A model generated the notes under the pieces. That model was not told the origin of the DNA and ran no database searches. It saw only the letters and a list, made by a program, of their open reading frames with translations. Positions 2,432-42,735 of a stretch of DNA of 64,000 nt are shown in pieces. Location of the stretch: contig DASVDF010000050.1 of the NCBI GenBank assembly GCA_036381215.1, positions 29,379 through 93,378 on the forward strand, given 5' to 3'. The DNA comes from Woeseiaceae bacterium. GTDB lineage: Bacteria; Pseudomonadota; Gammaproteobacteria; Steroidobacterales; Woeseiaceae. A program made the translations under genes and the position numbers. Numbering within the stretch: the first letter of the stretch is position 1; every line of letters starts with the position of its first letter.

Positions 2432-2460
2432 CACGGCAGGCATACAAATTCCGTGCCGTG
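2432..2460 (-). terminator. possible hairpin terminator after the sulfotransferase-fold gene
   Basis: Inverted repeat CACGGCA (2432-2438) / TGCCGTG (2454-2460) with a 15-nt loop. On the minus strand it is followed by CTTTCCC, which is only a weak T tract. Confidence 0.3.
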
Positions 2461-2541
2461 GCACGACGCGGACCGCACGTCGCTCCGTACCCTGCCGGAC
2501 GGCCGGTGTCCGCAAGCACGCCCGGCTCGTGCGGTAACTTG

Positions 2542-3345
2542 TTACGCCGCCGTGTAAGCCTTACAGCGCCAGCAGGTCACGTCGGCCTCCGGTTCACAGG
2601 TGCCGAAGATGCGCCGCGAGAGCTCGTGGACCTCGTCGTCGAAGAGCGCTGTGAAATCCCGGTCGTGCTCGAAATGTCGCCAGCGCTCATGCGTGCGCAT
2701 GGCCTGTGCGCGACCGTCGTAACTCAGGCCGTCGAAGGAGCTGCCGTTTCCGGTCGCCGGGACCCGTTCGCGGCCCGCGTCGGTGAACGCGAGGCCGAGC
2801 GCCGCGGCGAGCCTGCGCCGATAGCTCCGGTCTGCGACCCAGCGGTTATAGCTGATCGCCACGCGCCCGCTGTCGAGATAGCGGCGCATACCGAGCACTT
2901 CGCGCGCGTGCTGTTTCCAGATGCGCAGCACGGCGCCTTGCGTGACTCCGCCGATGCCGCTGCGCATCCGACTGGCGAACAGGTTGTACGGGTCTCTCAG
3001 GATGATGAGGTCGGTCCGCCGAAGCGATTTCCCGACCCATTCATCGTGCCGGCGTTCGAATTCACCGCTCGTGACCGTTCCGAGAAAACAATCCTCGTAG
3101 CTCACGACGAGGAGATCCTTGCGCGAGTGCGCGCCACGGCGCTCCGCCGCTTCGCAGAAAGGGCGGTAGCTTGCGACGACGGCCCGGCCGTCGGCCATGG
3201 GGCGCGCGGTGGTGAAAGGATTGCAGCGCGGTTCCGCGCAGTTGACGAAGCAGGTGCGGCCCGCGGCCTGCGAGAGGATCCAGTGGATGATGGCGTGGTT
3301 GCCGCTGCGTGACATTCCCGTGATGCGCATTTCACGTCGATTCAT
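2542..3345 (-). CDS. sulfotransferase-fold (P-loop-like) protein, function unknown
   Basis: Track ORF 2542..3408, start trimmed to MNRREMRITGMSRSGNHAIIHW. MSRSGNH resembles the 5'-PSB loop and ILRDPYNLFAS the 3'-PB region of PAPS sulfotransferases. The match is weak and made from memory. An alternative start is at 3330. Confidence 0.5.
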   Translation of the reverse strand: MNRREMRITGMSRSGNHAIIHWILSQAAGRTCFVNCAEPRCNPFTTARPMADGRAVVASYRPFCEAAERRGAHSRKDLLVVSYEDCFLGTVTSGEFERRHDEWVGKSLRRTDLIILRDPYNLFASRMRSGIGGVTQGAVLRIWKQHAREVLGMRRYLDSGRVAISYNRWVADRSYRRRLAAALGLAFTDAGRERVPATGNGSSFDGLSYDGRAQAMRTHERWRHFEHDRDFTALFDDEVHELSRRIFGTCEPEADVTCWRCKAYTAA

Positions 3346-3509
3346 GGGACGGCATTGTATACGGTAAAAAACGTGCAGAGGCAGCATAGACCAATCCGGC
3401 AGAGACACGGGAGGGCGCCGGTTATGGTCGGCGGAAACCGCGAAGGGCGCGCGCCACGGCTATCCGGCCGTGCCGACGAGCGGCGGCGGGTTGGCGGAAC
3501 GCGGCGCGG

Positions 3510-4280
3510 CTACGGGCGGGCGGCGGCGCTCGTGGCGACTTCTGCGAGCTCGGCCCTGACGGCGGGCGCGACCGGGGCGCTCTCGCACCAGAACGTCTCG
3601 TGCTCGGGCGACTCGAGCACCTCGAAGCCGCTGCTGCGCAGCATGGCGCGCGCGCAGGCTTCGTTGGCGGCCCACCAGTTGGTGGCGTCGTCGGCGAGGC
3701 TGTGCTCGATGAAGCCGAGCTTCGGCCAGCCGGGCCGCGCGATGCGGTAGCGCTCGTCCAGCGGAAAATCGCGCGGTACGCGGCAGGCCGCCACGTCCGG
3801 GAAGGTCATGGTCTGGAACATCAGATAACGTGGCGAGAGCGAGCGCACGATGTCGAGCGCGAGCAAAGGATGGCGCAGGTGATAGGCGACACCCATGAAC
3901 CAGACGAGATCGAAGTGCTCGTGGAGCTCGGGCAGCCGGTAGACGGACAGCCGGCGGAACACCGGCGGCCGCTCCGGCCCGATCAGTGACGACGCCCAGC
4001 GCGCCTGGGCGAGATAGTGCTCGTCGATGTCGACGCCGACCACCTCGGCGCCGCGCTCGGCGAGCGCGAAGCTGTAGTAACCCGCGTTGCAGCCGACGTC
4101 GAGGACCCGCCAGCCGGAGAGATCGTCCGGCACGACGTGGCGGATGCGCTCCCATTTGCGCGCGGGAAAGTCACCGAGCGGATGCGCCGGCGCCGTCTCG
4201 ATGCCGCCGGGCAGGTGCAGGTTGTGGAACCATTCGCCGAGCCTGCGGACTTCCGCGACGACGGTGCCGGTCTCCTCCAT
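3510..4280 (-). CDS. SAM-dependent methyltransferase (CmoB C-terminal / Methyltransf_9-like)
   Basis: The real part of the 506-aa track ORF starts at MEETGTVVAEVRRLGEWFHNLHLPGG. SAM motif I is VLDVGCNAGYYSFALAERGAEVVGVDID. The upstream 250 aa of the track ORF is out-of-gene read-through. Confidence 0.8.
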   Translation of the reverse strand: MEETGTVVAEVRRLGEWFHNLHLPGGIETAPAHPLGDFPARKWERIRHVVPDDLSGWRVLDVGCNAGYYSFALAERGAEVVGVDIDEHYLAQARWASSLIGPERPPVFRRLSVYRLPELHEHFDLVWFMGVAYHLRHPLLALDIVRSLSPRYLMFQTMTFPDVAACRVPRDFPLDERYRIARPGWPKLGFIEHSLADDATNWWAANEACARAMLRSSGFEVLESPEHETFWCESAPVAPAVRAELAEVATSAAARP

Positions 4281-4284
4281 GTCC

Positions 4285-5331
4285 TCATTCCTTGCCTTCG
4301 ATGTACGCTTCGAGCTCGGCCGCGCGTGTCTGCCCCGTGTGCGAGGACAGCGCGCGTGCGCGCGCGGCCCGGCCGATCGCGCGGCGCTCTTCGTCGGGCA
4401 TTGCCCGCAGCCACGCGAGGACCTCGTCCGGTCCTTCCGCGACGAGGATTTCCTCGCCGATGCGGAAGAACGTGTCGAGCCCCGGCCATGCATCGGAGAT
4501 GACGGGTGTGCCGCAGCAGGCAGCTTCGAACAGCCGCACGCTCGGTGACCAGCCCATGCGGCGCATGTCGGCGCGGGTGACGTTGAGCGTGAAACGCTGG
4601 CTGCAGTAGAAGCCGGCATGCTCGCCCGGCGCCACGTGATCGACGTGCTCGACGTTCGCCGGCCAGGCGACGGTGTCCGGATATTGCGCGCCGGCGACGA
4701 CGAAGCGTCCGTCATTCCACCGCGACGCCGGCTCGAGCAGCAGCCTGCGCACGCCGTCGTGACGGTCCTTGGACCACGTGCCCAGATAGCCGAGATCCAC
4801 CCCGTTCGGCACCGGGACGGGGTTGTGCGTCTCGGGATCCACGGAGCAGTACAGCGGCACCGGGCGCCGCGCGCCGAGCGCGCGCAGGGCATCGAGCGCG
4901 GCGCCGCCGGAAAAGCTGAGATACAGGTCGAAATGCGGGAGCAGGTCGCGCGTGAGGTACTCGCAGCGATTCTCCGCGAGGGCGGCGAGCGTGACCGGCG
5001 TATCGATGTCGTAGAACGCGAGCAGCGCATCGCAGCGCAGAAGCTCGCTTACGAGCGTGTCCGTCTCCGCCACGTATGAGCCGATGACCACGACGTCGGC
5101 GGCGGCGAGAGCCGTGCGCTGCGCGTGCCACAGCTCCCGCGCATGCGTATAGAAGTGCAGGAAATCGCAGTCCGGTATGTCGCGATGCGCGGCATACCAG
5201 GGCTGCTCACGCTCGTAGAACGCCACCTCGTGTCCGCGTTCGCGCAGCCCCTTCAGCAACGCGCGGTACGTCGTCGCGTGTCCGTTGCCCCAGGACGAGC
5301 TGTAGGTCAGGCCGATGAACGCGAAATTCAT
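4285..5331 (-). CDS. CgeB-like glycosyltransferase (Glyco_trans_1_2-type), paralogue 1
   Basis: 348-aa track ORF. N-terminal SSSWGNGHATTYRALLKGLRERGHEV and C-terminal LNVTRADMRRMGWSPSVRLFEAACCGTPVISDAWPGL. The stop lies 4 nt before the methyltransferase start. Confidence 0.75.
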   Translation of the reverse strand: MNFAFIGLTYSSSWGNGHATTYRALLKGLRERGHEVAFYEREQPWYAAHRDIPDCDFLHFYTHARELWHAQRTALAAADVVVIGSYVAETDTLVSELLRCDALLAFYDIDTPVTLAALAENRCEYLTRDLLPHFDLYLSFSGGAALDALRALGARRPVPLYCSVDPETHNPVPVPNGVDLGYLGTWSKDRHDGVRRLLLEPASRWNDGRFVVAGAQYPDTVAWPANVEHVDHVAPGEHAGFYCSQRFTLNVTRADMRRMGWSPSVRLFEAACCGTPVISDAWPGLDTFFRIGEEILVAEGPDEVLAWLRAMPDEERRAIGRAARARALSSHTGQTRAAELEAYIEGKE

Positions 5332-6422
5332 CCCGTGCGCACCTGCCTGCGCGGAGCGCCGTTCAGCAGGCGCTCGACGTCGAGCGCACGGTGCGCGTAG
5401 GTGTGCTCCGCCAGCATGCGCCGGCGTGCGCGCTCACCGATGGCGCGTGCCTCCGCTCCGCCGAGCTCGTCGACGCGCCGCGCGACCTCCGCGCCGTCGG
5501 CGGCGATGAGCACTTCTTTCTCGGGCTCCAGGAAGTGCGCCATGCCCTCCCAGGCGTCGGAGATCACGCACGCGCCGGCGCCGGCGGCTTCGAACAACCG
5601 GGTGGCCGGCGAATGGCCCATGCGCGCCATGTCGTCGCGGCTGATGTTGATCACGGCCTTCGCGCTCACGTTGAACGCGTTGTGCTCGCTCGTGTACACG
5701 TGTCCGACCCAGCGCAGGTTGGGCAGTCTGCTCGCCGCGTCGTCCCATCCCGCGCCGCCGAGCACGAACGTGCGCCGCGGGAGCCGCCGCGCCGGCGCGA
5801 ACAGGAATTCTTCCACGCGGTGCTCCCGATCGGGGAGGCGGTTGCCGAGAAAGCCGAGGTCGCCGGCGAAGCGCGCATCCGGCCCTACGGGAAAGTGCGT
5901 CGCCGGATCGAGCGCGTTGTAGATGACCTCGCACTGACGCGCACCGAGGGCGTGGTAGCGGCGCCGCGCCGGCTCCCCGCCGCCGTAGCAGAAGACGAAA
6001 TCGAACTCGGGCAGCAGCGCGCGCAGCGGGTCCGCCGCGTCGGCCTCGAGGCGGGCGAGAGTGGCGGGTGTGTCGACGTCCCAGAAGATCTTGCCGGGGC
6101 CTTTGCTGCCCGCGACCTCGGCTTCGAGCCGCTCGTCGCCGACGCCCACGCCGCTCGCCTTGACGACGAAATCGGCGCTCGCGGCCTGCCGCAGGCAGCG
6201 CCGCACGGCGGCGGTGTCCTCCGGGTCGTACACGACGACCTCGCCCCACGGCAGCGCGTCCAGGTCGCGGTGCTGCTGGCGCCCGAAGGCGTCGGGCTCG
6301 AACCAGCGCAGTCGGTGGCCGCGGGCATGCAGCGCGCTCGCCAGTCCGCGATAGTAGGTGGCCGCCCCGTTCCAGTAGGCGGACAGGATGCTCGAGACGA
6401 AGAAGGCGACGTCGAGGCTCAT
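5328..6422 (-). CDS. CgeB-like glycosyltransferase, paralogue 2
   Basis: Start trimmed to MSLDVAFFVSSILSAYWNGAATYYRGLASALHARGHRL. C-terminal INISRDDMARMGHSPATRLFEAAGAGACVISDAWEGM. ATGA overlap with the downstream gene at 5328-5331. Confidence 0.75.
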   Translation of the reverse strand: MSLDVAFFVSSILSAYWNGAATYYRGLASALHARGHRLRWFEPDAFGRQQHRDLDALPWGEVVVYDPEDTAAVRRCLRQAASADFVVKASGVGVGDERLEAEVAGSKGPGKIFWDVDTPATLARLEADAADPLRALLPEFDFVFCYGGGEPARRRYHALGARQCEVIYNALDPATHFPVGPDARFAGDLGFLGNRLPDREHRVEEFLFAPARRLPRRTFVLGGAGWDDAASRLPNLRWVGHVYTSEHNAFNVSAKAVINISRDDMARMGHSPATRLFEAAGAGACVISDAWEGMAHFLEPEKEVLIAADGAEVARRVDELGGAEARAIGERARRRMLAEHTYAHRALDVERLLNGAPRRQVRTG

Positions 6423-6432
6423 GGCTCGACGC

Positions 6433-7626
6433 TCACGGCGCGGGCGATGCCAGCGAGCCGGCTCCGTGGGCGAGCGGCAGTGCGCCGTCACCTTGCTTGC
6501 GTGGGGCGCTCGTGAGCAGGGCGACGACCGGCTGGTCCAGGCTGGCGCAGATGTCGAGCAGCTCGGTTACCCGATGCGCGCAGGTATGGCGCCGCTCGAT
6601 CGTCTCGCGGCCGGCGGCGGCGAGCTCGTCCGCCATGGCCCTGTCGCCCTGCAAGTCACGCATCGCCCGCGTCGCCTCGCGACCGTCGCCGACGACGAGG
6701 AAATCGCGTCCCGGCCGGAACAGGTTTTCGGTATCCGACCACGGAGCCGAGATCAGCGGGATGCCGCACGCGAGCGCCTCGAACACGCGGATCGTCGGGA
6801 TGCCGGGCAGCGTTTCCCGGTAAAAGCGCCGCGGTACGTGCAAGGTGAAGCGATGCCGGTGAAAGTGCCGCGGCACCTCGTAATTCGGCAGCCAGCCGCG
6901 GTAGTTGAGGCCTGCGCGCGCGAGTGCCGCCAGCGCCGTTTCGGGATAGCGCACGCCGTAGACGGAGCCGCGCACGCCGGCCATCAGCGCGGGCTCGACC
7001 AGGAATTCGTGCAGCTCGCGCGTGCGCTCGTCGTCGCCCCAGTTGCCGATCCAGATGAGGTCGTCCTGCGGCGAGGCGTCCGGGTCGCGCGGCGTGAACA
7101 CGCGCGTGTCGGCGGCTTCGTGCCACACCCACACCCGGTCACCCCAGCCGCGCTGCCGGTACACCGCCGCGAGCGCCTCGCCGAACACGAGCGCGCCGTC
7201 GAAATCGTCGAGCGGCAGCGCCGCGAGCTCGTCCGGGGCGCTGACGGTCCGATGGTGCGTGTCGTGGAACAAGAGCCGGTATCGCGAGCGCGTCAGCCGC
7301 CGGTGCATGCCGATGCGCGCAAACAGCTCCGGCGGATTCCATTCGTGGACGATGACCACGTCGGCGCCGTCGAGCGCGGCATCGAGGTCGAGGGTCTGCA
7401 TCGTGTAGCGGCGCGGCTGCAGCAGGGGATAGTGACGCCGGAACCCGTCGATCACCGCGACGCCTTCGTTGCGCACGAGGTTCCTGAGACTCCACCCGTC
7501 CGCGGGCTCGTAGACTTTGACGCCGTGCCCGCGCGCGGCGAGCTCGGTAGTGACGCCGCGCAGGAAATGGGCATTGCCGTGGTTCCAGTCGGACGTGAGC
7601 GAATGACAGAAAAAGACGAATTTCAT
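6433..7626 (-). CDS. CgeB-like glycosyltransferase, paralogue 3
   Basis: The real part of the 753-aa track ORF starts at MKFVFFCHSLTSDWNHGNAHFLRGVTTELAARGHGV. C-terminal LHVPRRFYRETLPGIPTIRVFEALACGIPLISAPWSDT. Confidence 0.75.
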   Translation of the reverse strand: MKFVFFCHSLTSDWNHGNAHFLRGVTTELAARGHGVKVYEPADGWSLRNLVRNEGVAVIDGFRRHYPLLQPRRYTMQTLDLDAALDGADVVIVHEWNPPELFARIGMHRRLTRSRYRLLFHDTHHRTVSAPDELAALPLDDFDGALVFGEALAAVYRQRGWGDRVWVWHEAADTRVFTPRDPDASPQDDLIWIGNWGDDERTRELHEFLVEPALMAGVRGSVYGVRYPETALAALARAGLNYRGWLPNYEVPRHFHRHRFTLHVPRRFYRETLPGIPTIRVFEALACGIPLISAPWSDTENLFRPGRDFLVVGDGREATRAMRDLQGDRAMADELAAAGRETIERRHTCAHRVTELLDICASLDQPVVALLTSAPRKQGDGALPLAHGAGSLASPAP

Positions 7627-8732
7627 GCGACGTTCTCCCTCGGTTCTTCTCGGACCCGCATCAAGGGCCCTGTTAGTTGTCGGTACTGGTTCGCATAGGC
7701 CGCGGCCATGCGCGCGGCGCTGTACTGGCGGGACCGTGCGCGCGCGGCGCGCCCGAGCCGCAGCCGCTCGCCCGGCCGGCAGAGCAGCCGCTCCAGGGCA
7801 CGGCCGAGGCCCGCGGCATCGTCGGGGCTGACGAAGAGGGCGGCGTCCTGCCACAGCTCGCGCAGCGTGGCGATGTCGCCGAGCACCAGCGGACAGCCGC
7901 AGACCGCGGCTTCCAGCACGGCGAGGCCGAACGGCTCGTAACGCGCGGGGTGCACGAATGCCGCCGCGCGCCGGAAATACTGGGCGAGGTCGTCGCGCGG
8001 GAGGCAGCCCAGCCGCACGAGATTGGGACTGCCGGGGGGTGCGGAGCCGAGATCGCCGGCGAGCAGCGTCGGACAGTCGAGCGTCGGCGCGAGCGTCGCC
8101 AGCTGCCCGAGGTTCTTCGCTTCGTCCCACGCCCGCCCGACGCCGAGGACGAAGCGCCCCGGCAGCCGGTCCGCGGGCCAGCGCGATGCGTCGATGCCGT
8201 TCACGATCACCGTCGCGCGCCCGTTCAGGTTCACTTCGTCGTAGCACTCGGCGGTGGCGTGCAGGTGGGCGTTGGTGGGCGCAACGACGCAGTCGGCGGC
8301 GGCGAGCGCGCGGATCACGCACTCGCGATAGCGCCGCCAGCTCCCGTCCGGGTCGCCGCCGCGGGTCGCCCGCCACCACGTGTGCACGCAGGAATGCGCG
8401 ACCACCAGCACCGGCACATCGAAGCGGTGCAGGGCCGGACCGTAGCAGTTGAGGTGCAAAAGCTCTGCGCCGCTCTCCTCGACGAGGCTGCCGATCCAGT
8501 CGGCGGCGCGCTCGACGTCGTCCCACGGATCCTGCATCCATTCGAGCCGGTAGTCGGCCTCGTACAGCACCACGTTGCGGAGCGCCGCCGCCTCCGCGCG
8601 CGCTTCCGCCCGCAGCGGGCCGCCGAGGCAGGCGAGTACTACTTCGCAACCGTGCACGGCCAGCGCGCGGCTGAGCTCGACGGAATAGGACCACACGCCG
8701 CCGACCGCATCCGTCGTCATCAAAATCCGCAT
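7623..8732 (-). CDS. GT4-family (GT-B) glycosyltransferase
   Basis: Start trimmed to MRILMTTDAVGGVWSY. Carries the ARYEPFGLAVLEAAVCGCPLV (E-x7-E region) typical of GT4. ATGA overlap with the next gene at 7623-7626. Confidence 0.8.
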   Translation of the reverse strand: MRILMTTDAVGGVWSYSVELSRALAVHGCEVVLACLGGPLRAEARAEAAALRNVVLYEADYRLEWMQDPWDDVERAADWIGSLVEESGAELLHLNCYGPALHRFDVPVLVVAHSCVHTWWRATRGGDPDGSWRRYRECVIRALAAADCVVAPTNAHLHATAECYDEVNLNGRATVIVNGIDASRWPADRLPGRFVLGVGRAWDEAKNLGQLATLAPTLDCPTLLAGDLGSAPPGSPNLVRLGCLPRDDLAQYFRRAAAFVHPARYEPFGLAVLEAAVCGCPLVLGDIATLRELWQDAALFVSPDDAAGLGRALERLLCRPGERLRLGRAARARSRQYSAARMAAAYANQYRQLTGPLMRVREEPRENVA

Positions 8733-9766
8733 CAGCGTGCTCCCTGCACGCGGCGGCCGTAGATGCGGTCGATCACCCCGGCGGTTTCTGCGAGCCCGTC
8801 GAGCTCGCCTGCGCCGCTCCCGGGAAGCGCGTGCGCCCATTCGATGAGCGCGCGGCCCGGCCAGGCATCGGGCGGGGCGCCGAGCAGCTCGCGCTCGGTG
8901 CCGCGCGTGATCGCCACTTCGAAGTCGTAGAACGAGCCGCCGACGTTCGCGATTTCCGCGCCGCCGCGCGTGCCGAACGCGCGGCAGCCGATCACCGCGC
9001 CGCGCCCGGCAGCCGCACGCCACGAGCACGCGAGGTGCACGCGCGCGCCGCTTGAGTACTCGATGGCCGCCAGGACGCAGTCCTCGGCCGCCTGCACCGG
9101 CGGCTCGAGCCTGCGGCCTGCGTGGAAACAGCGCGCGTGCACGTCGTCGGCGCCGGAGAGCCCGAGCAGCCAGTGACAGAGATCGAGAAGATGACAGCCG
9201 AGATCGAGCAGGCAGCCGCCGCCGGATCGCTCGACGTCGTAATACCAGGCGGCGTCCGGCCCGTACGCATTGTGAAAGCAGAGCTCGGCCGCGACGACGT
9301 CGCCGATCGCACCGTCCTGGATCCGCCGGCGCAGCTCACGCATGCCGGCCAGGCAGCGATAAGACCAGTCGACGCCGAGCGCGACGCCTTTTTCCTGCGC
9401 CAGCGCAACCAGCCGCTCAATGCCGGCGCGCGACAGGGCGAGCGGCTTCTGGCAGAACACGGGGAGGCCGCGCGCGAGCGCGGCGCGGGCCTGCGCTTCG
9501 TGCAGCGCATTCGGGGTCGCGATCACGATGCCGTCGAGCGGCTGTGCAATGAGCTCCTCGAAGCTCGGGCAGACCGCGGGCGCGCAGGCGAGCTCCGCGC
9601 AGGCCGCGTCGAGGCGCGACGCGTCCGGCTCGCACACGGCCGCCGCGTGCGCGACCCCGGAGCCTGCGAGCGTGCGCATGCGCTGCCCGCCGATCCAGCC
9701 GAGCCCTGCGAAACCGAGGCGCGGACGCGCGCGGACGGAATCGTCTCGTGGCAGCGCTACAGGCAT
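8732..9766 (-). CDS. Gfo/Idh/MocA family NAD(P)-dependent oxidoreductase
   Basis: Start trimmed to MPVALPRDD. It has the Rossmann N-terminus LGFAGLGWIGGQR and FCQKPLA (an EKP-motif variant). The stop TGA shares one base with the GT4 start (TGATG at 8730-8734). Confidence 0.8.
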   Translation of the reverse strand: MPVALPRDDSVRARPRLGFAGLGWIGGQRMRTLAGSGVAHAAAVCEPDASRLDAACAELACAPAVCPSFEELIAQPLDGIVIATPNALHEAQARAALARGLPVFCQKPLALSRAGIERLVALAQEKGVALGVDWSYRCLAGMRELRRRIQDGAIGDVVAAELCFHNAYGPDAAWYYDVERSGGGCLLDLGCHLLDLCHWLLGLSGADDVHARCFHAGRRLEPPVQAAEDCVLAAIEYSSGARVHLACSWRAAAGRGAVIGCRAFGTRGGAEIANVGGSFYDFEVAITRGTERELLGAPPDAWPGRALIEWAHALPGSGAGELDGLAETAGVIDRIYGRRVQGAR

Positions 9767-10683
9767 AGCAGTGCTTTGGTGAAGCCGGCCGGGCGCTCCT
9801 CCATGAGCCTGAAAGCCCGGTCGATCTCCGCGAGCGGGACGGAATGCGTGAACAAGGGCCATGGGTCGAGATGGCGCGTGCGGATGGCATCGATGGCGGC
9901 GCGCATGCCGTCGACATAGCGCTCAGGCTCGCGTTCGTGCGCGTTGACGACGTCGATGCCCTTCCAGTTCCATTCCTGCATGTCGACGCTGCGCGGACCT
10001 TCCTGGTGATAGCCGGCGATGACGAGTCGGCCGCGCACGCCGGTGAGCCGGCTCGCGACATCGAGACCCTGTTGCGTCCCGGTGCACTCGATGACGCGCG
10101 GCCAGTTGTCTTCGAGCGCGGCCGGGTCGTCCAGCGGGCGCGCCTCGACCGCGCCTTGCTCGCGGGCGCACTCCAGCGACCAGGCCCGCCGGGAGAATGC
10201 CGTCACCCGCGCGCCGGCGGCGGCGGCGCACTGGATGACGAGGCCGCCCATGAAACCCGCGCCGACCACCGCCACCGGCATCCCGGATGCGATGTCGGCG
10301 CGCTCGAACACGTTCATTGCGCACGCGAGCGCCTCGCCGGGGAATGGCCGGCCATCGAGCTCCTGGGGCAGCCGAACCACGTGGGCCGCGTCCGCGATGT
10401 CGCACTCGGCGTAGGCGCGGTACGTGAGGCCGGTGACGCGATCGCCGACCTCGGGGAAGGCGACGCCTTCGCCGCAGGCCACGACACGCCCCCACGGCTC
10501 GTGCCCGGGCGCACCCGCGTCGAGCGGGTAGCCGAACCAGGGCCGCCCCTGCCAGGCCGGCAAAGTCGAGGCGCACACGCCGCAACCCTCGAGCCGGATC
10601 AGCACCTCGCCCGGGCCCGGGGTCACCTCACGGCAGCGCTCGATGGACGAGCGGCCGTTGCCGTGCAGCACCGCGGCCTTCAC
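9757..10683 (-). CDS. zinc-type (MDR) alcohol dehydrogenase-like oxidoreductase
   Basis: A GTG start at 10683 (VKAAVLHGNG...) overlaps the upstream stop as GTGA. Motifs: GVCASTL, PGHEPWG (Zn ligand region) and VVGAGFMGG (NAD fold). It is the real part of the 749-aa track ORF. Confidence 0.75.
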   Translation of the reverse strand: MKAAVLHGNGRSSIERCREVTPGPGEVLIRLEGCGVCASTLPAWQGRPWFGYPLDAGAPGHEPWGRVVACGEGVAFPEVGDRVTGLTYRAYAECDIADAAHVVRLPQELDGRPFPGEALACAMNVFERADIASGMPVAVVGAGFMGGLVIQCAAAAGARVTAFSRRAWSLECAREQGAVEARPLDDPAALEDNWPRVIECTGTQQGLDVASRLTGVRGRLVIAGYHQEGPRSVDMQEWNWKGIDVVNAHEREPERYVDGMRAAIDAIRTRHLDPWPLFTHSVPLAEIDRAFRLMEERPAGFTKALLCL

Positions 10684-11762
10684 ACGCGGCTCTCGCTCGG
10701 CCGTGTCGGGATGTCGACCGGAGCCTGCCGGTCTTCCGCGAGCCAGCCCCAGAGAAGGTCGATTCCGGCGGCGACGCCGATGCGCGGCGCCCATCCGGTC
10801 AGTGACGAGAATCGGCCGTGATCCGCCGCGAACCAGGGCTGGTCGCCGGGACGGGGACCGGCGAACAGCACGTCGAGGCTGCGCCCCGAGAGTCGCTCGG
10901 CCGTCTCGATCAGCTCGAGCAGGCTCAGCGTGTTGGCGATGCCGCCGCCCATGTTGAACACCTGGCCGGAGAGGCGGTCGATGCGCTCGCGCAGCAGGAG
11001 CAGCGCGCCGACGAAGTCGTCGATGTACAAGAGGTCGCGCACCTGGTGACCGTCGCCATAGATCGTGAGCGGCTCGCCCTGGAGCGCCTGTTTGAGGAAA
11101 TGCGCGACCCAGCCCTGGTCGCTGGTCGCCTGCTGATGCGGCCCGTAGATGCAGCTCATGCGGAACACCACGGCGGGCAGGCCGAAGCTCCGCGCGTAAT
11201 CGAGAACGTACTGGTCCGCCGCGCCTTTCGAGCAGCCGTACGGGCTGATGAAGTCGAGCGGCTGCGTCTCGTTGACGCCGCGCCCGGCCATTGCCGGATC
11301 GGCGGGCTCGACGCGGCGTTCCACCTTCCGGACGCCGACGCCGGGCAGCGCGCCATACACCTTGTTGGTCGATGCGAACATGAGACCCGGCGGCTTGCTC
11401 GCCTTCCGCATCGCCTCCAGCACGTTCAGCGTGCCGCCGACATTGATCGCGTGGTCCGTGCGCGGATCGCGCAGGCTGGTCGTGACGGCGACCTGCGCCG
11501 CGAAGTGATAGACGAACGCGCTGGCCGTTACCGCCGCGTCGACCGCGCCCGCATCGCGAACGTCCGTATCGAGATGCTGCACGGCGTCGCCGTGGCGCGC
11601 GCGCAGCCAGCCGAGGTTGCGCTCGACGCCCGGTCGCGACAGATCGTCGAGGACGACCACCGATTCGCCCCCTGCGAGCAGGCGGTCGGCGAGGTTGGCG
11701 CCGATGAAGCCGGCGCCGCCGGTGATCAGCACCTGCCCGCGACCGTTGCCGGGCCGCGTCAC
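10680..11762 (-). CDS. NAD-dependent epimerase/dehydratase (extended SDR; CDP-paratose-2-epimerase-like)
   Basis: A GTG start at 11762 (VTRPGNGRGQVLITGGAGFIGANL) overlaps the upstream stop as GTGA. The catalytic YxxxK is in SPYGCSKGAADQY. Confidence 0.8.
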   Translation of the reverse strand: MTRPGNGRGQVLITGGAGFIGANLADRLLAGGESVVVLDDLSRPGVERNLGWLRARHGDAVQHLDTDVRDAGAVDAAVTASAFVYHFAAQVAVTTSLRDPRTDHAINVGGTLNVLEAMRKASKPPGLMFASTNKVYGALPGVGVRKVERRVEPADPAMAGRGVNETQPLDFISPYGCSKGAADQYVLDYARSFGLPAVVFRMSCIYGPHQQATSDQGWVAHFLKQALQGEPLTIYGDGHQVRDLLYIDDFVGALLLLRERIDRLSGQVFNMGGGIANTLSLLELIETAERLSGRSLDVLFAGPRPGDQPWFAADHGRFSSLTGWAPRIGVAAGIDLLWGWLAEDRQAPVDIPTRPSESRV

Positions 11763-12868
11763 AGCGTGAGCCCCCGCCGCGCCAGCTCGGCGGCAGCGAC
11801 TCCCGCGCGATCGGTGGCGGTCTGGCGGGCCAGCCATCCGGCGAGCTCCTCGATCCCGTCCTTGAAGCGGATTTCGGGGGTGTAGCCGAGATCGTCGCGC
11901 GCGCGTGAGATGTCGGCGAAGCAATGGCGCACGTCGCCGACGCGGTACTTGCCCTCGAACTGCGGATCGATGTCACGGTCCAGCACGTCCGCGAGCGTCT
12001 GCGCAACCTCCTCGATGCTCACCGGGCTGCCGCTGCCGACGTTGATCGCGCGGCCGGAAACGTCGGGCCGCGCGAGCGCGAGCCGGAACGCGCGCGCGAC
12101 GTCACGCACGTTGACGAAATCCCGCAGCTGCGCGCCGTCCTCGTAGATGATCGGCGGCCGGTCGTTCAACAAACGGCACGCGAAGATCGCCATGACGCCG
12201 GTATATGGATTGGACAGCGCCTGGCGCGGCCCGTAGACGTTGAACAGCCGCAGCGCGAGCGTGGGCACCGAGTAGGCCGCGCCGAACATGAGGCAAAGCA
12301 GCTCCTGGTCGTACTTGGTCAGCGCGTACGGTGAGGAAGGCACCGGCACCACGTCCTCCGGCGTGGGCACCGGCGTGAGCGCCTCGCCGCGGCGCCCGAG
12401 GATCTCCCACTCGTGACGTGCGAGCTGCTCGCGCGAGCGGCCTTGCGGGTGCAGCAGCCGCTGGCCTCCGTCGCGGTACGCACCCTCGCCATAGACGCTC
12501 ATGCTCGAGGCGACCACGAGGCGCTCGACCGGCTGGGCCGCGATCGCCTCGAGCAGCGTCGCCGTGCCGAGCGCGTTCACGCCGACATAGCGGCGGAGCT
12601 GGTACATGCTCTGGCCGACGCCGACTGCGGCCGCGAGGTGCACCACGGCGTGCACGCCGGACAACGCGCGCGCCACGGCGTCGGTGTCGCGCATGTCGGC
12701 TTCCACACGCTCGACGGCATCGTGCAGCCACTCGGGAAACGCGTCATCCTCGTGCACCTGCGGCACCAGCGCGTCGAGGACGCGCACGTCGTAGCCTTGC
12801 GCGAGTAACTCCTCGGCGACATGGCCTCCGATGAAGCCGGCTCCCCCGGTAATCAGCACCCTCTTCAT
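11759..12868 (-). CDS. NAD-dependent epimerase/dehydratase (extended SDR) with internal insertion
   Basis: Start trimmed to MKRVLITGGAGFIGGHVAEELL. YxxxK is in SPYALTKYDQE. ATGA overlap with the UXS-like gene at 12865-12868. Confidence 0.8.
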   Translation of the reverse strand: MKRVLITGGAGFIGGHVAEELLAQGYDVRVLDALVPQVHEDDAFPEWLHDAVERVEADMRDTDAVARALSGVHAVVHLAAAVGVGQSMYQLRRYVGVNALGTATLLEAIAAQPVERLVVASSMSVYGEGAYRDGGQRLLHPQGRSREQLARHEWEILGRRGEALTPVPTPEDVVPVPSSPYALTKYDQELLCLMFGAAYSVPTLALRLFNVYGPRQALSNPYTGVMAIFACRLLNDRPPIIYEDGAQLRDFVNVRDVARAFRLALARPDVSGRAINVGSGSPVSIEEVAQTLADVLDRDIDPQFEGKYRVGDVRHCFADISRARDDLGYTPEIRFKDGIEELAGWLARQTATDRAGVAAAELARRGLTL

Positions 12869-13833
12869 TGCACGGCGGCGGCCGGGATCGGCGTGACGTC
12901 CCGATCGCTGATCGTTCTTCGGAAGTAATGCATCGTGCGCGTCAGGCCATCTTCGAGCCGGGTCCGCGGCTGCCATCCCAGCACGTTGCGGGCGAGCGTA
13001 ATGTCCGGGCAGCGGCGCGTCGGATCGTCGACGGGCAGCGGCCGGAAAACGATGCTGGACGGCGAGCCGGTCAGCTTCAGCACGAGCTGGGCGAGATCCA
13101 GCACCGTGACTTCTTCGGGGTTGCCGAGGTTCACGGGACCCGCGGGCGGCTCCTTCAGGTCGAGGAAGCGGACGAGCCCGTCGACGAGATCATCGACATA
13201 GCAGAAGGATCGGGTGTGCGAGCCGTCACCGTAGATCGTGAGCGGCTCACGGCAGAGCGCCTGCGTGAGCAGGTTGGAGACCGCGCGCCCGTCGTCGATG
13301 CGCATGCGCGGCCCGTAGGTATTGAAGATGCGCACGACCGACGTGCGCACGCCGCGGTCCTGATAGAGATAGGAGACGGTTTCGGCGCAGCGCTTCGCCT
13401 CGTCGTAGCAAGCGCGCGGTCCCATCGTCTTCACGTTGCCGAGGTAATCCTCCTGTTGCGGGTGCTGCGCGGGATTGCCATACACTTCGCTGCTCGACGC
13501 GTAGATATAGTGGCTGCCGGTCTGCTCCGCGAGCTGCAGCAGGTTCAGGCTGCCGTCGACATTGGTGCGCAGCGTGAGCTCGGGCTCCGACTGGTAGTGC
13601 ACTGGCGACGCCGGGCTCGCGAGATTGAAAATGGCGTCGACCGGCAGCCAGAGCGGCTCGAGCACGCTGCGTTGAATGAAGGAGAAGCGCGGCGAGGAGA
13701 GGAGACCGACGATGTTCTCGCGGCGTCCGGTCATGAGATTGTCGAGGCAGGCGACGGTGTGCCCGCCCTGGATGAGGCGCCGGCACAGGTGGGAGCCCAC
13801 GAACCCCGCGCCACCTGCTACGAGAATCTTCAT
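12865..13833 (-). CDS. UDP-glucuronate decarboxylase (UDP-xylose synthase)-like extended SDR
   Basis: 322-aa track ORF. Motifs: MKILVAGGAGFVGSHLCRRL, YDEAKRCAE (YxxxK) and RIFNTYGPRM, all characteristic of UXS/ArnA-decarboxylase-type enzymes. First gene of the operon. Confidence 0.85.
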   Translation of the reverse strand: MKILVAGGAGFVGSHLCRRLIQGGHTVACLDNLMTGRRENIVGLLSSPRFSFIQRSVLEPLWLPVDAIFNLASPASPVHYQSEPELTLRTNVDGSLNLLQLAEQTGSHYIYASSSEVYGNPAQHPQQEDYLGNVKTMGPRACYDEAKRCAETVSYLYQDRGVRTSVVRIFNTYGPRMRIDDGRAVSNLLTQALCREPLTIYGDGSHTRSFCYVDDLVDGLVRFLDLKEPPAGPVNLGNPEEVTVLDLAQLVLKLTGSPSSIVFRPLPVDDPTRRCPDITLARNVLGWQPRTRLEDGLTRTMHYFRRTISDRDVTPIPAAAVQ

Positions 13834-13908
13834 AGGGAGGTCCTCTCCGTGTGGTCAGTTCGGTGCCTCCGACACGGGGCCGCACGTAGAGGCAGGTGAG
13901 CTCAATCA

Positions 13909-13924
13909 TGCAAGACATATGCCA
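13909..13924 (-). promoter_or_regulatory. candidate sigma54 (-24/-12) promoter of the glycan operon
   Basis: The minus strand reads TGGCAT-ATGTC-TTGCA, i.e. GG-N10-GC spacing, against the consensus TGGCAC-N5-TTGCW. It lies about 75 nt upstream of the ATG at 13833. An AT-rich block at about 14035-14075 lies further upstream. Confidence 0.5.
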
Positions 13925-14114: not shown

Positions 14115-15923
14115 CTATTCGCCCTCGTTCCGGATGAGGCCGCGCGTCTGCTGGCGCACCAGGCGCGCGTAATAGGCGTCCTTCGCGAGCAGCTCCTCGT
14201 GCGTGCCGGTTTCCGCGATGCGCCCGTCCTTCAGCACGACGATACGATCGGCGTTGACCACGGTGCTGAGCCGGTGCGCGATGATGAAGGTAGTGCGGTC
14301 GCGCACCAGCGAATCGAGCGCTTCCTGCACCGCGGCCTCCGAGTCCGCATCCAGCGACGCGGTGGCTTCGTCGAGCACGATGATGGACGGCCGTTTGACC
14401 AGCGCACGCGCGATCGACACCCGCTGGCGCTCGCCCACCGACAGGCGGCTGCCGCGCTCGCCGACCACGGTGCCGTAACCCTCCGGCATGGCGGTGATGA
14501 AATCGTGCGCCGATGCCGCGCGGGCCGCGGCCTCGATCTCCTCCCGGGTGGCGTCCGGATAGCCGTAAGCGATGTTGGCGGCGATCGTGTCGTTGAACAG
14601 CAGCGGATCCTGCAGCACCACGCCGACGTGGCTGCGCAGCGAGCGCTGCTTCAATGTCCGGAGATCCCGGCCGTCGAGCAGCACTCTCCCGTAGTCGGGG
14701 TCGTAGAAGCGCATCAGGAGCGCCATCAGCGTGGTCTTGCCGGAGCCGCTCGGGCCGACGATCGCCACCTTCTCGCCCGCGCGCACCTCGAGAGTGATGC
14801 CGGAGAGCAGGGGCCGCTCGCCCGGGCCGTAGGAGAAGTGAACGTCCTCGAACACGATGTCGCCGTGCACGCTCTCGAGCTCGCGCGCGTCCGGCGCGTC
14901 GCCCAGGTGCTCCTGGAGATCGAGGATTGCGAAGATCTGGCTGAGCGAGACGGTGCCCCGCTTCAGCGCGCCCCAGGTGCCGGACAGGCCCTGCACCGGC
15001 CCGAACAGTCCGCCGACGTAGCCCAGGAACGCAATCAGCGTGCCGACGGTCATGGCGCCGCGCACGATGAACAGGCCGCCCAAGCCGATCACCGCGATGC
15101 GGGCGAGGGCGACGACCAGGTTGCTGGCCGTGCCGAACGCGGTGTCCGTCGCCACGCCGCGGACGACGATGCGGTTGGCGGCGCTCACGTCGTTGAGGAA
15201 CCGCTCCTTCTCCTTTTCTTCCATGGCGAAGCTGCGCACGGTGACGATGCCGGCCAGCACCTCGTTGAATCGCGAGTAGATGTGCGCCCAGCGGTCCAGC
15301 ATGCTGCGCTCGCGCCGCGCCTGCTCGGGCGCGGCGAGTGCCGCGAGCACCGCGGGCATGGGCGCGAACAGCAGGACGACGAGCGCGAGGCGCCATTCGA
15401 GGTCCAGCATCACGAACACGGCGATGACGAGGAAGACCACCGCCGGCAGCACGCTGATCAGGAGCTGGGTGACCGCGGCGACGAAGCCCTGGATGCTGCG
15501 ATCGAGGCGGGTGAGCACCGCGCCGACGCCTTCGCTGCGTTGCAGCTTGAGCGGCATGCGGTGCAGCCGCTCGACGGTCGCCTGGAGCAGCGCGTATTGC
15601 AGGCCGATGCGCATGCGCCAGGTCAGCCAGTTGGACGTGCCGCTCGCGCCTTCGCGGAACACGGACATGATGCCGAGGAACACGAGGCCGAGGCCCACGG
15701 CCTCGAGTCCGCGCCCGGCGGTCAGGCCATCGATGATGAATTTGAGCACCAGCGGCTCGATGGAGCTCACCAGCGCTACCGCGAGGGTGAGCACGAGGAT
15801 GATGGCGATCGAGAACCGGTGCGGGACAGTGAACGCGAGCGCCCGCCGCAACTGCCGGGCGGTGCTCTCCCTGTTACCGGCGTCGCCGAAGCCGCCGCCC
15901 GCGACGGGGGCCGGACGGCTCAA
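14115..15923 (-). CDS. ABC exporter, fused permease/ATPase (MsbA-like, type I exporter)
   Basis: 602-aa track ORF with six N-terminal TM helices, Walker A GPSGSGKTT, signature LSVGERQRV and Walker B IIVLDEATS. Confidence 0.85.
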   Translation of the reverse strand: MSRPAPVAGGGFGDAGNRESTARQLRRALAFTVPHRFSIAIILVLTLAVALVSSIEPLVLKFIIDGLTAGRGLEAVGLGLVFLGIMSVFREGASGTSNWLTWRMRIGLQYALLQATVERLHRMPLKLQRSEGVGAVLTRLDRSIQGFVAAVTQLLISVLPAVVFLVIAVFVMLDLEWRLALVVLLFAPMPAVLAALAAPEQARRERSMLDRWAHIYSRFNEVLAGIVTVRSFAMEEKEKERFLNDVSAANRIVVRGVATDTAFGTASNLVVALARIAVIGLGGLFIVRGAMTVGTLIAFLGYVGGLFGPVQGLSGTWGALKRGTVSLSQIFAILDLQEHLGDAPDARELESVHGDIVFEDVHFSYGPGERPLLSGITLEVRAGEKVAIVGPSGSGKTTLMALLMRFYDPDYGRVLLDGRDLRTLKQRSLRSHVGVVLQDPLLFNDTIAANIAYGYPDATREEIEAAARAASAHDFITAMPEGYGTVVGERGSRLSVGERQRVSIARALVKRPSIIVLDEATASLDADSEAAVQEALDSLVRDRTTFIIAHRLSTVVNADRIVVLKDGRIAETGTHEELLAKDAYYARLVRQQTRGLIRNEGE

Positions 15924-16033
15924 TGGTCCCGAGGCGAGTGGCTGCTGCCGTCTCTGCCGCCCATGGTGGGGCCTCCGACCAAACGCGTACCCGGAGCTGG
16001 TGCAAGTTTCGCGCCAGCGACCGGCGCGGGGGA

Positions 16034-26230: not shown

Positions 26231-26340
26231 GCCGTCAGTGTACAACGCCGGCAGAGGCTGAAGCCGGTTCGGTTCCGCCGCTCCGGCGCGTTGCGGATTC
26301 GTGGTCACGGGCGGGTACCGCGCCCGGGTTCCCGGGAAAA

Positions 26341-38234: not shown

Positions 38235-38253
38235 TCCGGGTCAAAGCCGCCGT

Positions 38254-42720: not shown

Positions 42721-42735
42721 GGATCGATTGCTCGT

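Follow-up and report, generated by a model that had tools for sequence, protein, structure and literature searches.

An operon behind a sigma-54 type motif

The window, meaning the whole 64,000-nucleotide stretch of Woeseiaceae DNA analysed here, carries eleven minus-strand genes between positions 13833 and 2542. On translation, each frame is free of internal stops. The genes, the motif ahead of them and a hairpin behind them are as follows.

13909..13924, minus strand: sigma-54 type promoter element (-24 GG / -12 GC), TGGCATATGTCTTGCA, exact motif
12865..13833, minus strand: g01, predicted UDP-glucuronate decarboxylase (UDP-xylose synthase), 322 aa (phmmer/PDB, Pfam Epimerase)
11759..12868, minus strand: g02 (SDR2), extended SDR, NDP-sugar 4-epimerase-like, 369 aa (PDB relatives)
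10680..11762, minus strand: g03 (SDR3), CDP-tyvelose 2-epimerase-like SDR, 360 aa (PDB relatives)
9757..10683, minus strand: g04, short MDR-type Zn-dependent alcohol dehydrogenase, 308 aa (Pfam ADH_N, ADH_zinc_N)
8732..9766, minus strand: g05, Gfo/Idh/MocA sugar or cyclitol oxidoreductase, 344 aa (Pfam)
7623..8732, minus strand: g06, GT4 family GT-B glycosyltransferase, 369 aa (Pfam Glycos_transf_1, Glyco_transf_4)
6433..7626, minus strand: g07 (CgeB1), PF13524 glycosyltransferase paralogue 1, 397 aa (Pfam Glyco_trans_1_2, E 4e-36)
5328..6422, minus strand: g08 (CgeB2), PF13524 glycosyltransferase paralogue 2, 364 aa (Pfam, E 3e-37)
4285..5331, minus strand: g09 (CgeB3), PF13524 glycosyltransferase paralogue 3, 348 aa (Pfam, E 3e-41)
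3510..4280, minus strand: g10, TIGR04290-family SAM-dependent methyltransferase (CmoB-like core), 256 aa (NCBIfam)
2542..3345, minus strand: g11, uncharacterised, predicted PAPS-sulfotransferase fold, 267 aa (AF2 and Foldseek)
2451..2466, minus strand: weak terminator-like hairpin between g11 and the SRPBCC gene (consensus scan)

Stop-to-start distances from g01 to g11 are -4, -4, -4, -10, -1, -4, +10, -4, +4 and +164 nt, the last being the gap between g10 and g11. The measured junctions reproduce those listed in an earlier note on this DNA (overlaps of the ATGA, GTGA and TGATG type, one overlap of 10 nt, and gaps of 10 nt and 4 nt), and bear out its claim of a translationally coupled operon. 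The 10-nt overlap of g04 with g05, and the other overlaps, also occur in the gene calls of three relatives (L085, L086 and L091). The hairpin is not above shuffle expectation. It lies inside a 146-nt gap ahead of the SRPBCC gene, whose GTG start is probably at 2395.

The element TGGCATATGTCTTGCA is 75 nt upstream of the g01 ATG. It is the sole exact match to TGGCA-N6-TTGCW in the 64-kb window, where base composition gives a chance expectation of ~0.1. The earlier note had placed a sigma-54 promoter at the operon head; this is supported by the exact motif and by its retention in the close relatives L085 and L086, where it precedes the orthologue of the first gene by 72-73 nt. Note that the gene set recurs elsewhere as a cassette, described below, and that sigma-54 activator genes adjoin it in seven other loci. 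Motifs together with adjoining activators are found in Xanthomonas, Pseudoxanthomonas, Variovorax and Acidobacteriota loci. The Xanthomonas sacchari copy, for instance, has TGGCACGCGATTTGCG ahead of the first cassette gene and an activator alongside. No sigma-54 activator gene is present within the window.

Enzymes of the operon

All domain calls for the enzyme families named in the earlier note held in Pfam, NCBIfam and PDB searches. The g01 product matches human UXS1 over its full length (E 3e-104, phmmer against PDB) and, on this homology, is predicted to be a true UDP-xylose synthase. In the PDB, g02 comes closest to MoeE5 and to UDP-GlcA, UDP-GlcNAc and UDP-Glc 4-epimerases (E 1e-42 to 1e-40). 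The alignment falls into two separate stretches, and g02 has an insertion of ~45 amino acids. Over 49 orthologues, 126 of its 369 positions are at least 90% identical, Y-x3-K among them. The g03 protein aligns at full length with PDB entries 9rl0 and 1orr (E 4e-75) and its YGCSK catalytic motif is conserved. In many other lineages, SDR3 carries a GH-like TIM barrel as an N-terminal fusion. PDB relatives of g04 are weak; its Cys36 and His63-Glu64 ligand positions are kept in 49 orthologues. The best NCBIfam match of g05 is inositol 2-dehydrogenase, under cut-off at 83 bits; among its relatives in the PDB are 1,5-anhydrofructose reductase, scyllo-inositol dehydrogenase and DgpA, a glycoside 3-oxidase.

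Among the glycosyltransferases, g06 has weak C-terminal NCBIfam matches to MshA, BshA, glycogen synthase and GlcNAc-PG synthase. The three CgeB-like paralogues are each strongly constrained. Alignment columns at least 90% conserved number 129 for g07 (over 60 orthologues; window protein 397 aa), 140 for g08 (364 aa) and 107 for g09 (348 aa). At 26 such columns the same residue is common to all three, the R-x-F-E-A motif included. About one third of glycosyltransferase residues are nearly invariant in the orthologue alignments.

The methyltransferase g10 scores 306.4 bits against TIGR04290 (cut-off 300), has 3560 relatives with E <= 1e-20, and matches CmoB in the PDB only over the core. Searches of g11 against Pfam, NCBIfam and PDB sequences gave no match. 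The sulfotransferase fold assigned to this last gene in the earlier note is backed by an AF2 model (pLDDT 83.6), for which the top Foldseek matches are nearly all PAPS sulfotransferases (E 5e-5, TM 0.35-0.49). The gene follows the methyltransferase in L091 and L092, is near it in L093 and L041, and is absent from L085 and L086. We conclude that g11 is a lineage-variable accessory gene.

Conservation of the cassette and the question of export

The earlier note had posed recurrence of the gene order across genomes as a check. We defined a nine-gene core, from SDR2 to the methyltransferase, and counted order only in the 60 loci with enough flank. The order is identical in 39 of the 60, and these 39 come from five phyla: Pseudomonadota, Bacteroidota, Desulfobacterota, Actinomycetota and Gemmatimonadota. 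In Acidobacteriota, Planctomycetota, Verrucomicrobiota, Fibrobacterota and Alphaproteobacteria the cassette is present in rearranged form, and a ten-gene core recurs in many bacterial phyla. The shared order is far beyond chance. Proteins are 40-63% identical across phyla, which is unusually high for glycan genes. We found no published function for the cassette.

Other loci carry additional enzymes: inositol-phosphate synthase (in the Sinorhizobium meliloti locus and 7 others), histidine phosphatase, nucleotidyltransferase, PGM/PMM, NUDIX, PIG-L deacetylase and GNAT. These accessory genes code for soluble small-molecule enzymes. A GH-A-like hydrolase is present in 41 loci, often as the SDR3 fusion. 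Genes for inositol-phosphate synthase, phosphatase and the GH-like enzyme are missing from the window and its closest relatives. UXS is inserted at three different cassette positions, depending on lineage. Pentose is therefore argued to be a genuine constituent of the product.

SDR and GT4 genes are typical of surface polysaccharide loci, and an LPS core, O-antigen, capsule or EPS could be made here if the priming transferase, flippase or ABC-2 exporter, and polymerase were encoded elsewhere. The methyl group would then be a terminating cap, ending the chain as in WbdD-type systems; terminal methylation is known to cap ABC-dependent O-antigens, and an ABC gene is nearby. However, no priming transferase, Wzx/Wzy, Wza/Wzc or ABC-2 gene is among the annotated ORFs of the window. 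Similarly, neither the window nor the recurrent neighbour families of ~87 loci, where flanking ORFs are partly annotated, include an initiating transferase, Wzx/Wzy, Wzm/Wzt or Wza/Wzc. Nor was any membrane or export gene conserved alongside the cassette. Furthermore, g10 is without a WbdD-like kinase or coiled-coil region, regulation is through stress sigma factors, and cassette order and identity are maintained in diderm as well as monoderm phyla, unlike surface-glycan loci, which are quick to diversify. We consider a surface polysaccharide quite unlikely. The earlier note had described the locus as unlike O-antigen, capsule and EPS loci. Order and content kept across diderm and monoderm phyla strengthen this contrast, as it also gains from accessory genes being predicted soluble-metabolism enzymes and export genes not being conserved.

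A Kyte-Doolittle scan (19 residues) found no transmembrane segments in g01-g12, in agreement with the earlier view that the operon proteins lack such helices. Note that this is no proof of a soluble product, because GT-B enzymes free of transmembrane helices, such as PimA/B and WbdA-C, also make lipid-linked glycans at the membrane face. Two features upstream of the operon bear on this.

14115..15923, minus strand: MsbA/NdvA-like ABC half-transporter (Pfam ABC_membrane, ABC_tran)
16001..16016, minus strand: second sigma-54-like motif, one mismatch, TGGCGCGAAACTTGCA (motif scan)

The ABC protein is under every NCBIfam cut-off. Its Kyte-Doolittle scan gave multiple strongly hydrophobic stretches, as overlapping hits whose number is not a helix count. 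The motif TGGCGCGAAACTTGCA is 77 nt upstream of its start. Counting against the reading favoured below, an MsbA-like ABC gene with a sigma-54-like motif adjoins the operon here and in two Gemmatimonadales loci. In those loci (L070 and L082) the ABC genes are 51-53% identical, lie ~5 kb downstream of the methyltransferase and are preceded by related GGGCAT[TC]GAACTTGCT motifs.

Such an arrangement would suit a membrane glycolipid, with the soluble GT-B enzymes acting like PimA/PimB at the cytoplasmic face to glycosylate a lipid (phosphatidylinositol, diacylglycerol or phosphatidylglycerol), and the ABC protein flipping the methylated glycolipid. Weak matches of the GT4 enzyme to PimB, GlcNAc-PG synthase and LTA-anchor glycosyltransferases point the same way, as does the linked inositol-phosphate synthase. 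Conversely, recurrent neighbour families and annotated accessory ORFs include no PI synthase, acyltransferase or other lipid enzyme. The ABC gene is found in only 3 of ~87 loci, and the closest relatives (L085 and L086) lack it, while the linked histidine phosphatase, NUDIX and nucleotidyltransferase genes suit soluble chemistry better. Hence, we regard a glycolipid as unlikely. The ABC gene is possibly a lineage-variable exporter outside the conserved core.

Proposed pathway and product

Our preferred reading, to which we give about an even chance (roughly 0.5), is a cytoplasmic pathway under stress control that makes a conserved oligoglycoside, which contains pentose and is O-methylated and, here, perhaps sulfated; we infer the chemistry and intracellular location of this product. 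The region would be a sigma-54-dependent, translationally coupled operon, and a copy of an ancient, horizontally spread cassette with a likely hallmark: the TIGR04290 methyltransferase preceded by three PF13524 paralogues. An enhancer-binding protein would switch on the observed -24/-12 motif, presumably in stress or starvation. Given its strong homology, g01 should convert UDP-glucuronate to UDP-xylose, and g02 (4-epimerase-like) and g03 (CDP-tyvelose-2-epimerase-like) may supply epimeric nucleotide sugars. Next, g04 and g05 could oxidise, reduce or epimerise an acceptor, or a sugar on it. The acceptor would most plausibly be a polyol or cyclitol, for instance inositol or its phosphate. This idea is suggested by the inositol-phosphate synthase, phosphatase and GH-like genes of other loci; their absence from the window and its closest relatives counts against it. 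The soluble GT4 enzyme may start the chain and the CgeB-like enzymes may add one defined sugar each, giving a short oligoglycoside of fixed structure. Finally, g10 would O-methylate and, in this lineage, g11 may sulfate. In a few lineages the MsbA-like ABC protein may export the product.

Glycosyltransferases, a methyltransferase and, in 41 loci, the GH-A-like hydrolase also parallel the logic of the mycobacterial MMP cluster (ManT, MeT1/3 and MmpH). By analogy with MGLP and MMP, the soluble operon proteins might make an intracellular polymethylated oligo- or polysaccharide, with the GH-like enzyme trimming or priming chains in most lineages. Against this, the presence of four different glycosyltransferases, each conserved in its own right, suggests a short, defined structure and not a homopolymer. 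There is one methyltransferase only, the hydrolase is missing from the window, and the searches detected no relationship in sequence to MGLP or MMP enzymes. This makes a polymethylated saccharide decidedly improbable. Since the operon has no acceptor gene, the target might instead be a protein or secondary-metabolite scaffold encoded elsewhere and glycosylated in the cytoplasm; CgeB, which gives the family its name, has a role in the maturation of the Bacillus spore crust. However, near the cassette there is no conserved PKS, NRPS, terpene or candidate target gene, no flagellar or pilin genes are nearby, and PADLOC conflict-system matches are to the generic methyltransferase core only. We judge scaffold glycosylation very improbable.

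Stress regulation, part of the reading that we favour, is supported by data from S. meliloti, where the cassette appears to be SMb20238-SMb20251, the tags being assigned by gene order and annotation names. Expression of RpoE2, the general stress sigma factor, raises every gene of this set (log2 0.78-2.96 in the RpoE2 contrast of Lang et al. 2018; PMC6180224, supplementary file 2). Upstream of SDR2 in S. meliloti there is an EcfG-type motif. With this tag mapping, the S. meliloti copy appears to belong to the RpoE2 stress regulon. Three points go beyond the first reading of this DNA: the wide conservation, the lineage-variable nature of g11 and the ABC gene, and the S. meliloti copy in the RpoE2 regulon.

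The Woeseiaceae locus is no local oddity, being the local copy of a widespread conserved cassette. Its product would be a soluble metabolite of the cytoplasm, conserved among lineages and serving in stress protection or storage, and not a strain-variable surface polymer.

Structure of the operon and its products

Eleven reading frames, here called g01 to g11 in order of transcription, lie on the minus strand from position 13833 down to 2542. All translate cleanly. The distances from each stop codon to the next start, from g01 to g11, are -4, -4, -4, -10, -1, -4, +10, -4, +4 and +164 nt. An earlier note had described a sigma-54-headed, translationally coupled operon, and the junctions it named are all correct. 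The sole adjustment concerns g06, which spans 7623-8732 and whose ATG shares one base with the g05 stop codon. Independent gene calls of related contigs contain the same overlaps, including that of 10 nt between g04 and g05. The promoter element is as follows.

Promoter element of the operon
13909-13924, minus strand: sigma-54 -24 GG / -12 GC element TGGCATATGTCTTGCA, correctly spaced, 75 nt before the g01 ATG

This is the sole exact match to TGGCA-N6-TTGCW in 64 kb. Two close relatives of the locus, L085 and L086, keep the motif at equal distance from the first gene. We conclude that the region is a real operon with a sigma-54-type promoter element. No cognate enhancer-binding protein (AAA+ Sigma54_activat) is encoded in the 64-kb window, and scans for terminators and sigma-70 promoters were uninformative. 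Note that the window has a G+C content of ~69%. The GC and GC3 of the operon are those of its flanks and, hence, there is no compositional sign of recent transfer.

Gene products were assigned using Pfam and NCBIfam, with PDB sequence searches for the nearest relatives. The enzyme families proposed in the earlier note were borne out in every case.

Products of the operon genes (all minus strand) and the short names used in the text
g01 (UXS): genuine UDP-glucuronate decarboxylase; match to human UXS1, E 3e-104
g02 (SDR2): NDP-sugar 4-epimerase-like SDR with an insertion of ~45 residues; relatives are MoeE5 and UDP-GlcA/GlcNAc 4-epimerases
g03 (SDR3): CDP-tyvelose 2-epimerase (TyvE)-like SDR, E 4e-75
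g04 (ZnADH): short MDR Zn-dehydrogenase; metal ligands conserved
g05 (Gfo): Gfo/Idh/MocA enzyme; nearest relatives are 1,5-anhydrofructose reductase, glycoside 3-oxidases and inositol dehydrogenases
g06 (GT4): GT4 glycosyltransferase, from Pfam
g07-g09 (CgeB1, CgeB2, CgeB3): three PF13524 paralogues; solved relatives are remote GT4 enzymes only
g10 (MT): TIGR04290 methyltransferase of 256 aa with a CmoB-like core; 306.4 bits against a curated cut-off of 300
g11: unannotated; predicted sulfotransferase fold, from AlphaFold and Foldseek

A hydropathy scan found no transmembrane segment in any of these proteins, as the earlier note had judged by eye. For the CgeB-like trio, sequence and profile searches of the PDB returned remote GT4 matches and spurious designed TIM barrels, which do not inform on the acceptor. 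The three form anciently diverged orthologue groups, each with 107-140 columns conserved at 90% or above and with their own N-terminal S-x-W-x-x-G...R motif. Conservation of the SDRs, dehydrogenases and methyltransferase is similar. Twenty-six of the highly conserved columns (at least 90% in each group), including R-x-F-E-A, are common to all three paralogues. Since all retain these columns, CgeB1, CgeB2 and CgeB3 look catalytically competent. B. subtilis CgeB, the namesake of PF13524, shares the C-terminal glycosyltransferase domain family, but the setting of the trio is not sporulation and its N-terminal motif is its own.

The g11 protein matches no sequence family in Pfam, NCBIfam or the PDB. 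An AlphaFold model built from 35 homologues (pLDDT 83.6) matched, in Foldseek, almost exclusively PAPS sulfotransferases (E ~5e-5, probability ~1), but with modest TM scores of 0.35-0.49. Assignment to the PAPS-dependent sulfotransferases, which have a P-loop-like 5'-PSB motif, is tentative; g11 contains an invariant SRSG..H motif together with R117, S125 and R126. The unannotated family has more than 1000 members. Absence of g11 from the otherwise syntenic L085 and L086 had pointed to a private insertion. We dropped this idea; a homologue follows MT in L091 and L092, and is near MT in L093 and L041. Hence, g11 is a recurrent accessory gene. Elsewhere in the window, a gene for a classical sulfotransferase (Sulfotransfer_5, E 3.5e-67), which has no sequence relationship to g11, overlaps the last part of one for a class IV aminotransferase (25463-26374 and 24540-25502, both minus strand). 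After the operon is an SRPBCC (Polyketide_cyc2) gene (1925-2395, minus strand), for which L085, L086 and L091 show synteny. Its probable start is the GTG at 2395, which AAGGAG precedes, rather than the TTG at 2515 of the ORF list.

Remaining genes of the window concern saprophytic carbohydrate utilisation, TonB functions and corrinoid methyltransferases, with no glycan export machinery among them. A corrinoid methyl-transfer cluster (36705-44359, minus strand) encodes an MttB-superfamily protein, a RACo-type reductive activator, a pterin-binding methyltransferase and a B12-binding protein. This suggests demethylation of quaternary amines, such as glycine betaine, in this proteobacterium. At 48879-55746 (plus strand) are genes for a TonB-dependent receptor, SapC, Cupin_8 and a tryptophan-halogenase-like protein; on either side are those for GH94 with an SSF transporter, GH9, GH67, GH3 and a PA14-containing GH31. 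Together, these indicate a plant-polysaccharide-degrading lifestyle.

Distribution of the cassette and its neighbours

The earlier note had asked whether the gene order recurs. A scan with the methyltransferase profile, using one genome per species, identified at least 590 relatives, and 80 loci were taken with 10-kb flanks. Gene order was then tested by tblastn with the window proteins, for the 60 loci having at least 9 kb upstream. In 39 of the 60, nine genes are arranged identically, as SDR2-SDR3-ZnADH-Gfo-GT4-CgeB1-CgeB2-CgeB3-MT, which is also the order in the window. These loci derive from Gamma- and Betaproteobacteria, Bacteroidota, Desulfobacterota, Actinomycetota and Gemmatimonadota. 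Cassettes that are rearranged or incomplete occur in Acidobacteriota, Planctomycetota, Verrucomicrobiota, Fibrobacterota, Chloroflexota and one cyanobacterial MAG. Identity to the window proteins is 40-63%. The window operon has all three marks of the cassette: a methyltransferase scoring above the TIGR04290 cut-off, the CgeB1-CgeB2-CgeB3 tandem directly upstream of it, and, before that, 4-epimerase-like SDR, TyvE-like SDR, Zn-ADH, Gfo/Idh/MocA and GT4 genes in order. Best-hit relationships of the trio are preserved in all full loci. Among named relatives, the nearest are Woeseia and Steroidobacteraceae MAGs, and the methyltransferase family is on 132 plasmids and chromids, mainly of Sinorhizobium and Rhizobium. 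It is the only family of the cassette named at NCBI, without a function. Literature searches (TIGR04290, PF13524, CgeB with RpoN, tyvelose-epimerase/UXS operons and SMb locus tags) yielded no paper on the cassette. The degree to which the cassette keeps its sequence and order is not typical of surface-glycan loci, and argues for a product of fixed structure.

Genes that join the cassette vary. UXS occurs in 15 loci at differing positions: first in Gammaproteobacteria and Gemmatimonadales, between CgeB3 and MT in Sinorhizobium, and after MT in Christiangramia. That it has been recruited more than once suggests that the product really contains a pentose derived from UDP-xylose. A GH-A-like TIM-barrel protein, not in the window, is found in 41 loci and is often fused to the SDR3 N-terminus; such a TyvE-like SDR with an N-terminal barrel is encoded at L033 1525-3555 and in ~30 other loci of Bacteroidota and several other phyla. 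The barrel, of ~320 aa with NEP and EVG motifs, matches nothing in Pfam or NCBIfam. PGAP names a free-standing S. meliloti homologue 'beta-xylosidase'. Other recurrent neighbours are a histidine phosphatase (12 loci), a ~580-aa protein (10), a nucleotidyltransferase (8), a NUDIX protein (8), inositol-phosphate synthase (7, and S. meliloti), PGM/PMM and a fourth PF13524 gene. PIG-L deacetylase and GNAT genes occur in one Fibrobacterota variant. All are soluble small-molecule enzymes. The ~580-aa protein, SMb20248 in S. meliloti, has no Pfam or NCBIfam match and accompanies MT, often beside the histidine phosphatase.

Loci encoding the ~580-aa protein
L058, 3983-9964
L082, 10800-12569
L089, 3075-4616

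In L058 its gene also adjoins those for PIG-L deacetylase, GT4 and GNAT, an arrangement that recalls mycothiol biosynthesis. In Rufibacter (L007, 5900-10000), the cassette is interrupted between CgeB3 and MT. The intervening genes encode a carboxylesterase, a protein with a 3-keto-disaccharide hydrolase domain and another methyltransferase, and just downstream is a gene for PycTM, a Pycsar effector (11631-12218). As for anti-phage defence, PADLOC gave only a generic methyltransferase-core match to mad2, and we rejected a conflict system.

One neighbour bears on whether the product is a flipped glycolipid. Just upstream of the operon promoter is a gene for an MsbA/NdvA-like half-transporter (ABC gene, 14115-15923, minus strand). 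Two Gemmatimonadales loci, L070 and L082, have copies 51-53% identical, ~5 kb downstream of the cassette. The window gene and both copies are each preceded by a related sigma-54-like motif.

Features upstream of the ABC gene
16001-16016, minus strand: 77 nt before the ABC gene, a sigma-54-like motif with a single mismatch
15924-15985: 14-codon upstream ORF following this motif; its stop overlaps the TTG start of the ABC gene

The ABC gene is absent from the closest relatives of the window locus. Its link to the cassette is real, though weak and confined to certain lineages. We consider a flipped glycolipid unlikely.

Regulation in other lineages

In two Steroidobacter-like loci, a sigma-54-like motif is likewise found before the first gene; in four loci of Acidobacteriota, whose cassettes are split by insertions, such a motif comes before MT. 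X. sacchari R1 (SB85_RS20330-RS20280) resembles the window in gene order, with UXS first, the sigma-54 motif TGGCACGCGATTTGCG ~52 nt before UXS, and MT annotated as TIGR04290. It differs in having SDR3 fused to the GH-like domain, an extra 90-aa ORF, no g11, and a sigma-54-dependent regulator (Sigma54_activat with HTH_8, SB85_RS20275) directly downstream. Homologous activators are within 10 kb in six further loci, making seven outside the window.

In S. meliloti, pSymB carries orthologues of all ten core genes (the nine and UXS), with 36-57% identity, in the order SDR2-SDR3-GT4-CgeB1-CgeB2-CgeB3-UXS-MT and with ZnADH-Gfo divergent. From gene order and annotation names, we infer that this cluster is SMb20238-SMb20251. 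Every one of these genes is up in the RpoE2 contrast, with log2 values of 0.78-2.96 (Lang et al. 2018, PMC6180224, supplementary file 2). Hence, the cluster is regulated as one block and, in S. meliloti, the cassette is co-regulated with the stress response. The promoter is of EcfG/RpoE2 type, rather than sigma-54, with a GGAAC-N16-GGTT motif upstream of SDR2. Further differences are the place of UXS, the lack of g11 and the ABC gene, and the presence of inositol-3-phosphate synthase, histidine phosphatase, GH-like and ~580-aa proteins, all absent from the window. The surrounding region (L089, 23373-28421) contains general-stress genes (BON domain, DUF4142, DUF3618, holin-like and cupin), several preceded by GGAAC-N16-17-GTT motifs. 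Together, sigma-54 motifs in some lineages and the RpoE2 response in rhizobia point to one cassette with different wiring, to sigma-54 in the former and to the general-stress sigma factor in the latter.

The product and its possible roles

We put at roughly one in two the probability that the operon directs the cytoplasmic synthesis of a short oligoglycoside with a defined structure. The GT4 enzyme would start the glycoside on an acceptor that the operon does not encode. This is plausibly an inositol or polyol phosphate, given the Gfo and Zn-ADH pair here and linked inositol-phosphate synthase and phosphatase genes elsewhere. The three CgeB-like enzymes would extend the chain, whose sugars would include epimerised hexoses and xylose or one of its derivatives. 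O-methylation would cap it, with possible sulfation in the window lineage. None of the enzyme families is out of the ordinary, and the scheme follows a logic similar to that of cytoplasmic glycoside pathways already known.

Could the product instead be a surface glycan, with distant export genes? Soluble GT4 chain building and a terminal methyl cap are shared with the WbdA-D/Wzm/Wzt O-antigen, but the window has no Wzm/Wzt pair, WbdD-type kinase-methyltransferase or WecA-type primer linkage. We rejected an ABC-transporter-dependent glycan of the Wzm/Wzt type with a WbdD cap; the sole ABC gene encodes a fused MsbA/NdvA-type half-transporter and MT is a CmoB-like core. A Wzx/Wzy-dependent O-antigen, capsule or EPS locus was also rejected. 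As the earlier note had stated, no initiating phosphoglycosyl transferase, Wzx, Wzy or ABC-2 pair is found among annotated window ORFs; the first three are also absent among conserved neighbours in other loci, and the operon proteins are free of transmembrane segments. Hence, a surface glycan is decidedly unlikely.

Another possible product is an intracellular polymer. Mycobacterial MGLP and MMP are cytoplasmic O-methylated glycans made by soluble glycosyltransferases and SAM methyltransferases, with a hydrolase in the cluster and no export machinery. The cassette appears to share this logic, but no homology to their enzymes was detected and its phyletic range is different. Furthermore, it has four distinct glycosyltransferases, which argues for a hetero-oligosaccharide. 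A polymer of this kind is about as unlikely as a surface glycan. That the cassette glycosylates a protein or natural product is very improbable.

Mycothiol and bacillithiol biosynthesis uses a GT4 enzyme (MshA or BshA), a phosphatase, PIG-L deacetylase, a ligase and GNAT. Similarly, the GT4 here would act in the cytoplasm on a small phosphorylated acceptor, and genes for inositol-phosphate synthase, histidine phosphatase, PIG-L and GNAT are found in variants of the cassette. However, the window lacks deacetylase, ligase and thiol chemistry, and encodes three further glycosyltransferases along with a methyltransferase and nucleotide-sugar epimerases. The window GT4 scores 51 and 34 bits against MshA and BshA (cut-offs 462 and 274), the MshA match being weak and C-terminal only. 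With no PIG-L or ligase in the window, and PIG-L only in the variant L058, we rejected such a pathway.

Returning to the short oligoglycoside, a fuller and more tentative reading is of an undescribed stress metabolite, spread over many phyla, in which a pentose-containing, O-methylated and, in some lineages, sulfated chain is carried on an inositol-type cyclitol. If so, bacteria would have their own equivalent of the galactosyl-cyclitols and raffinose-family protectants of plants, and lineages would have wired the same metabolite to different stress sigma factors: sigma-54 in the window and EcfG/RpoE2 in rhizobia. A cassette of nine to ten genes, with order and 40-60% identity kept across many phyla, in stress regulons, and with no assigned product, stands out among carbohydrate genes and points to a conserved metabolite that has been overlooked. 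Since the S. meliloti copy is tractable and RpoE2-responsive, the question is directly testable. The answer could reveal bacterial protectants of a new class, against desiccation or osmotic stress, or an intracellular glycan, and would give functions to the PF13524 trio, to the TIGR04290 methyltransferases and to the g11-type sulfotransferase-like family.
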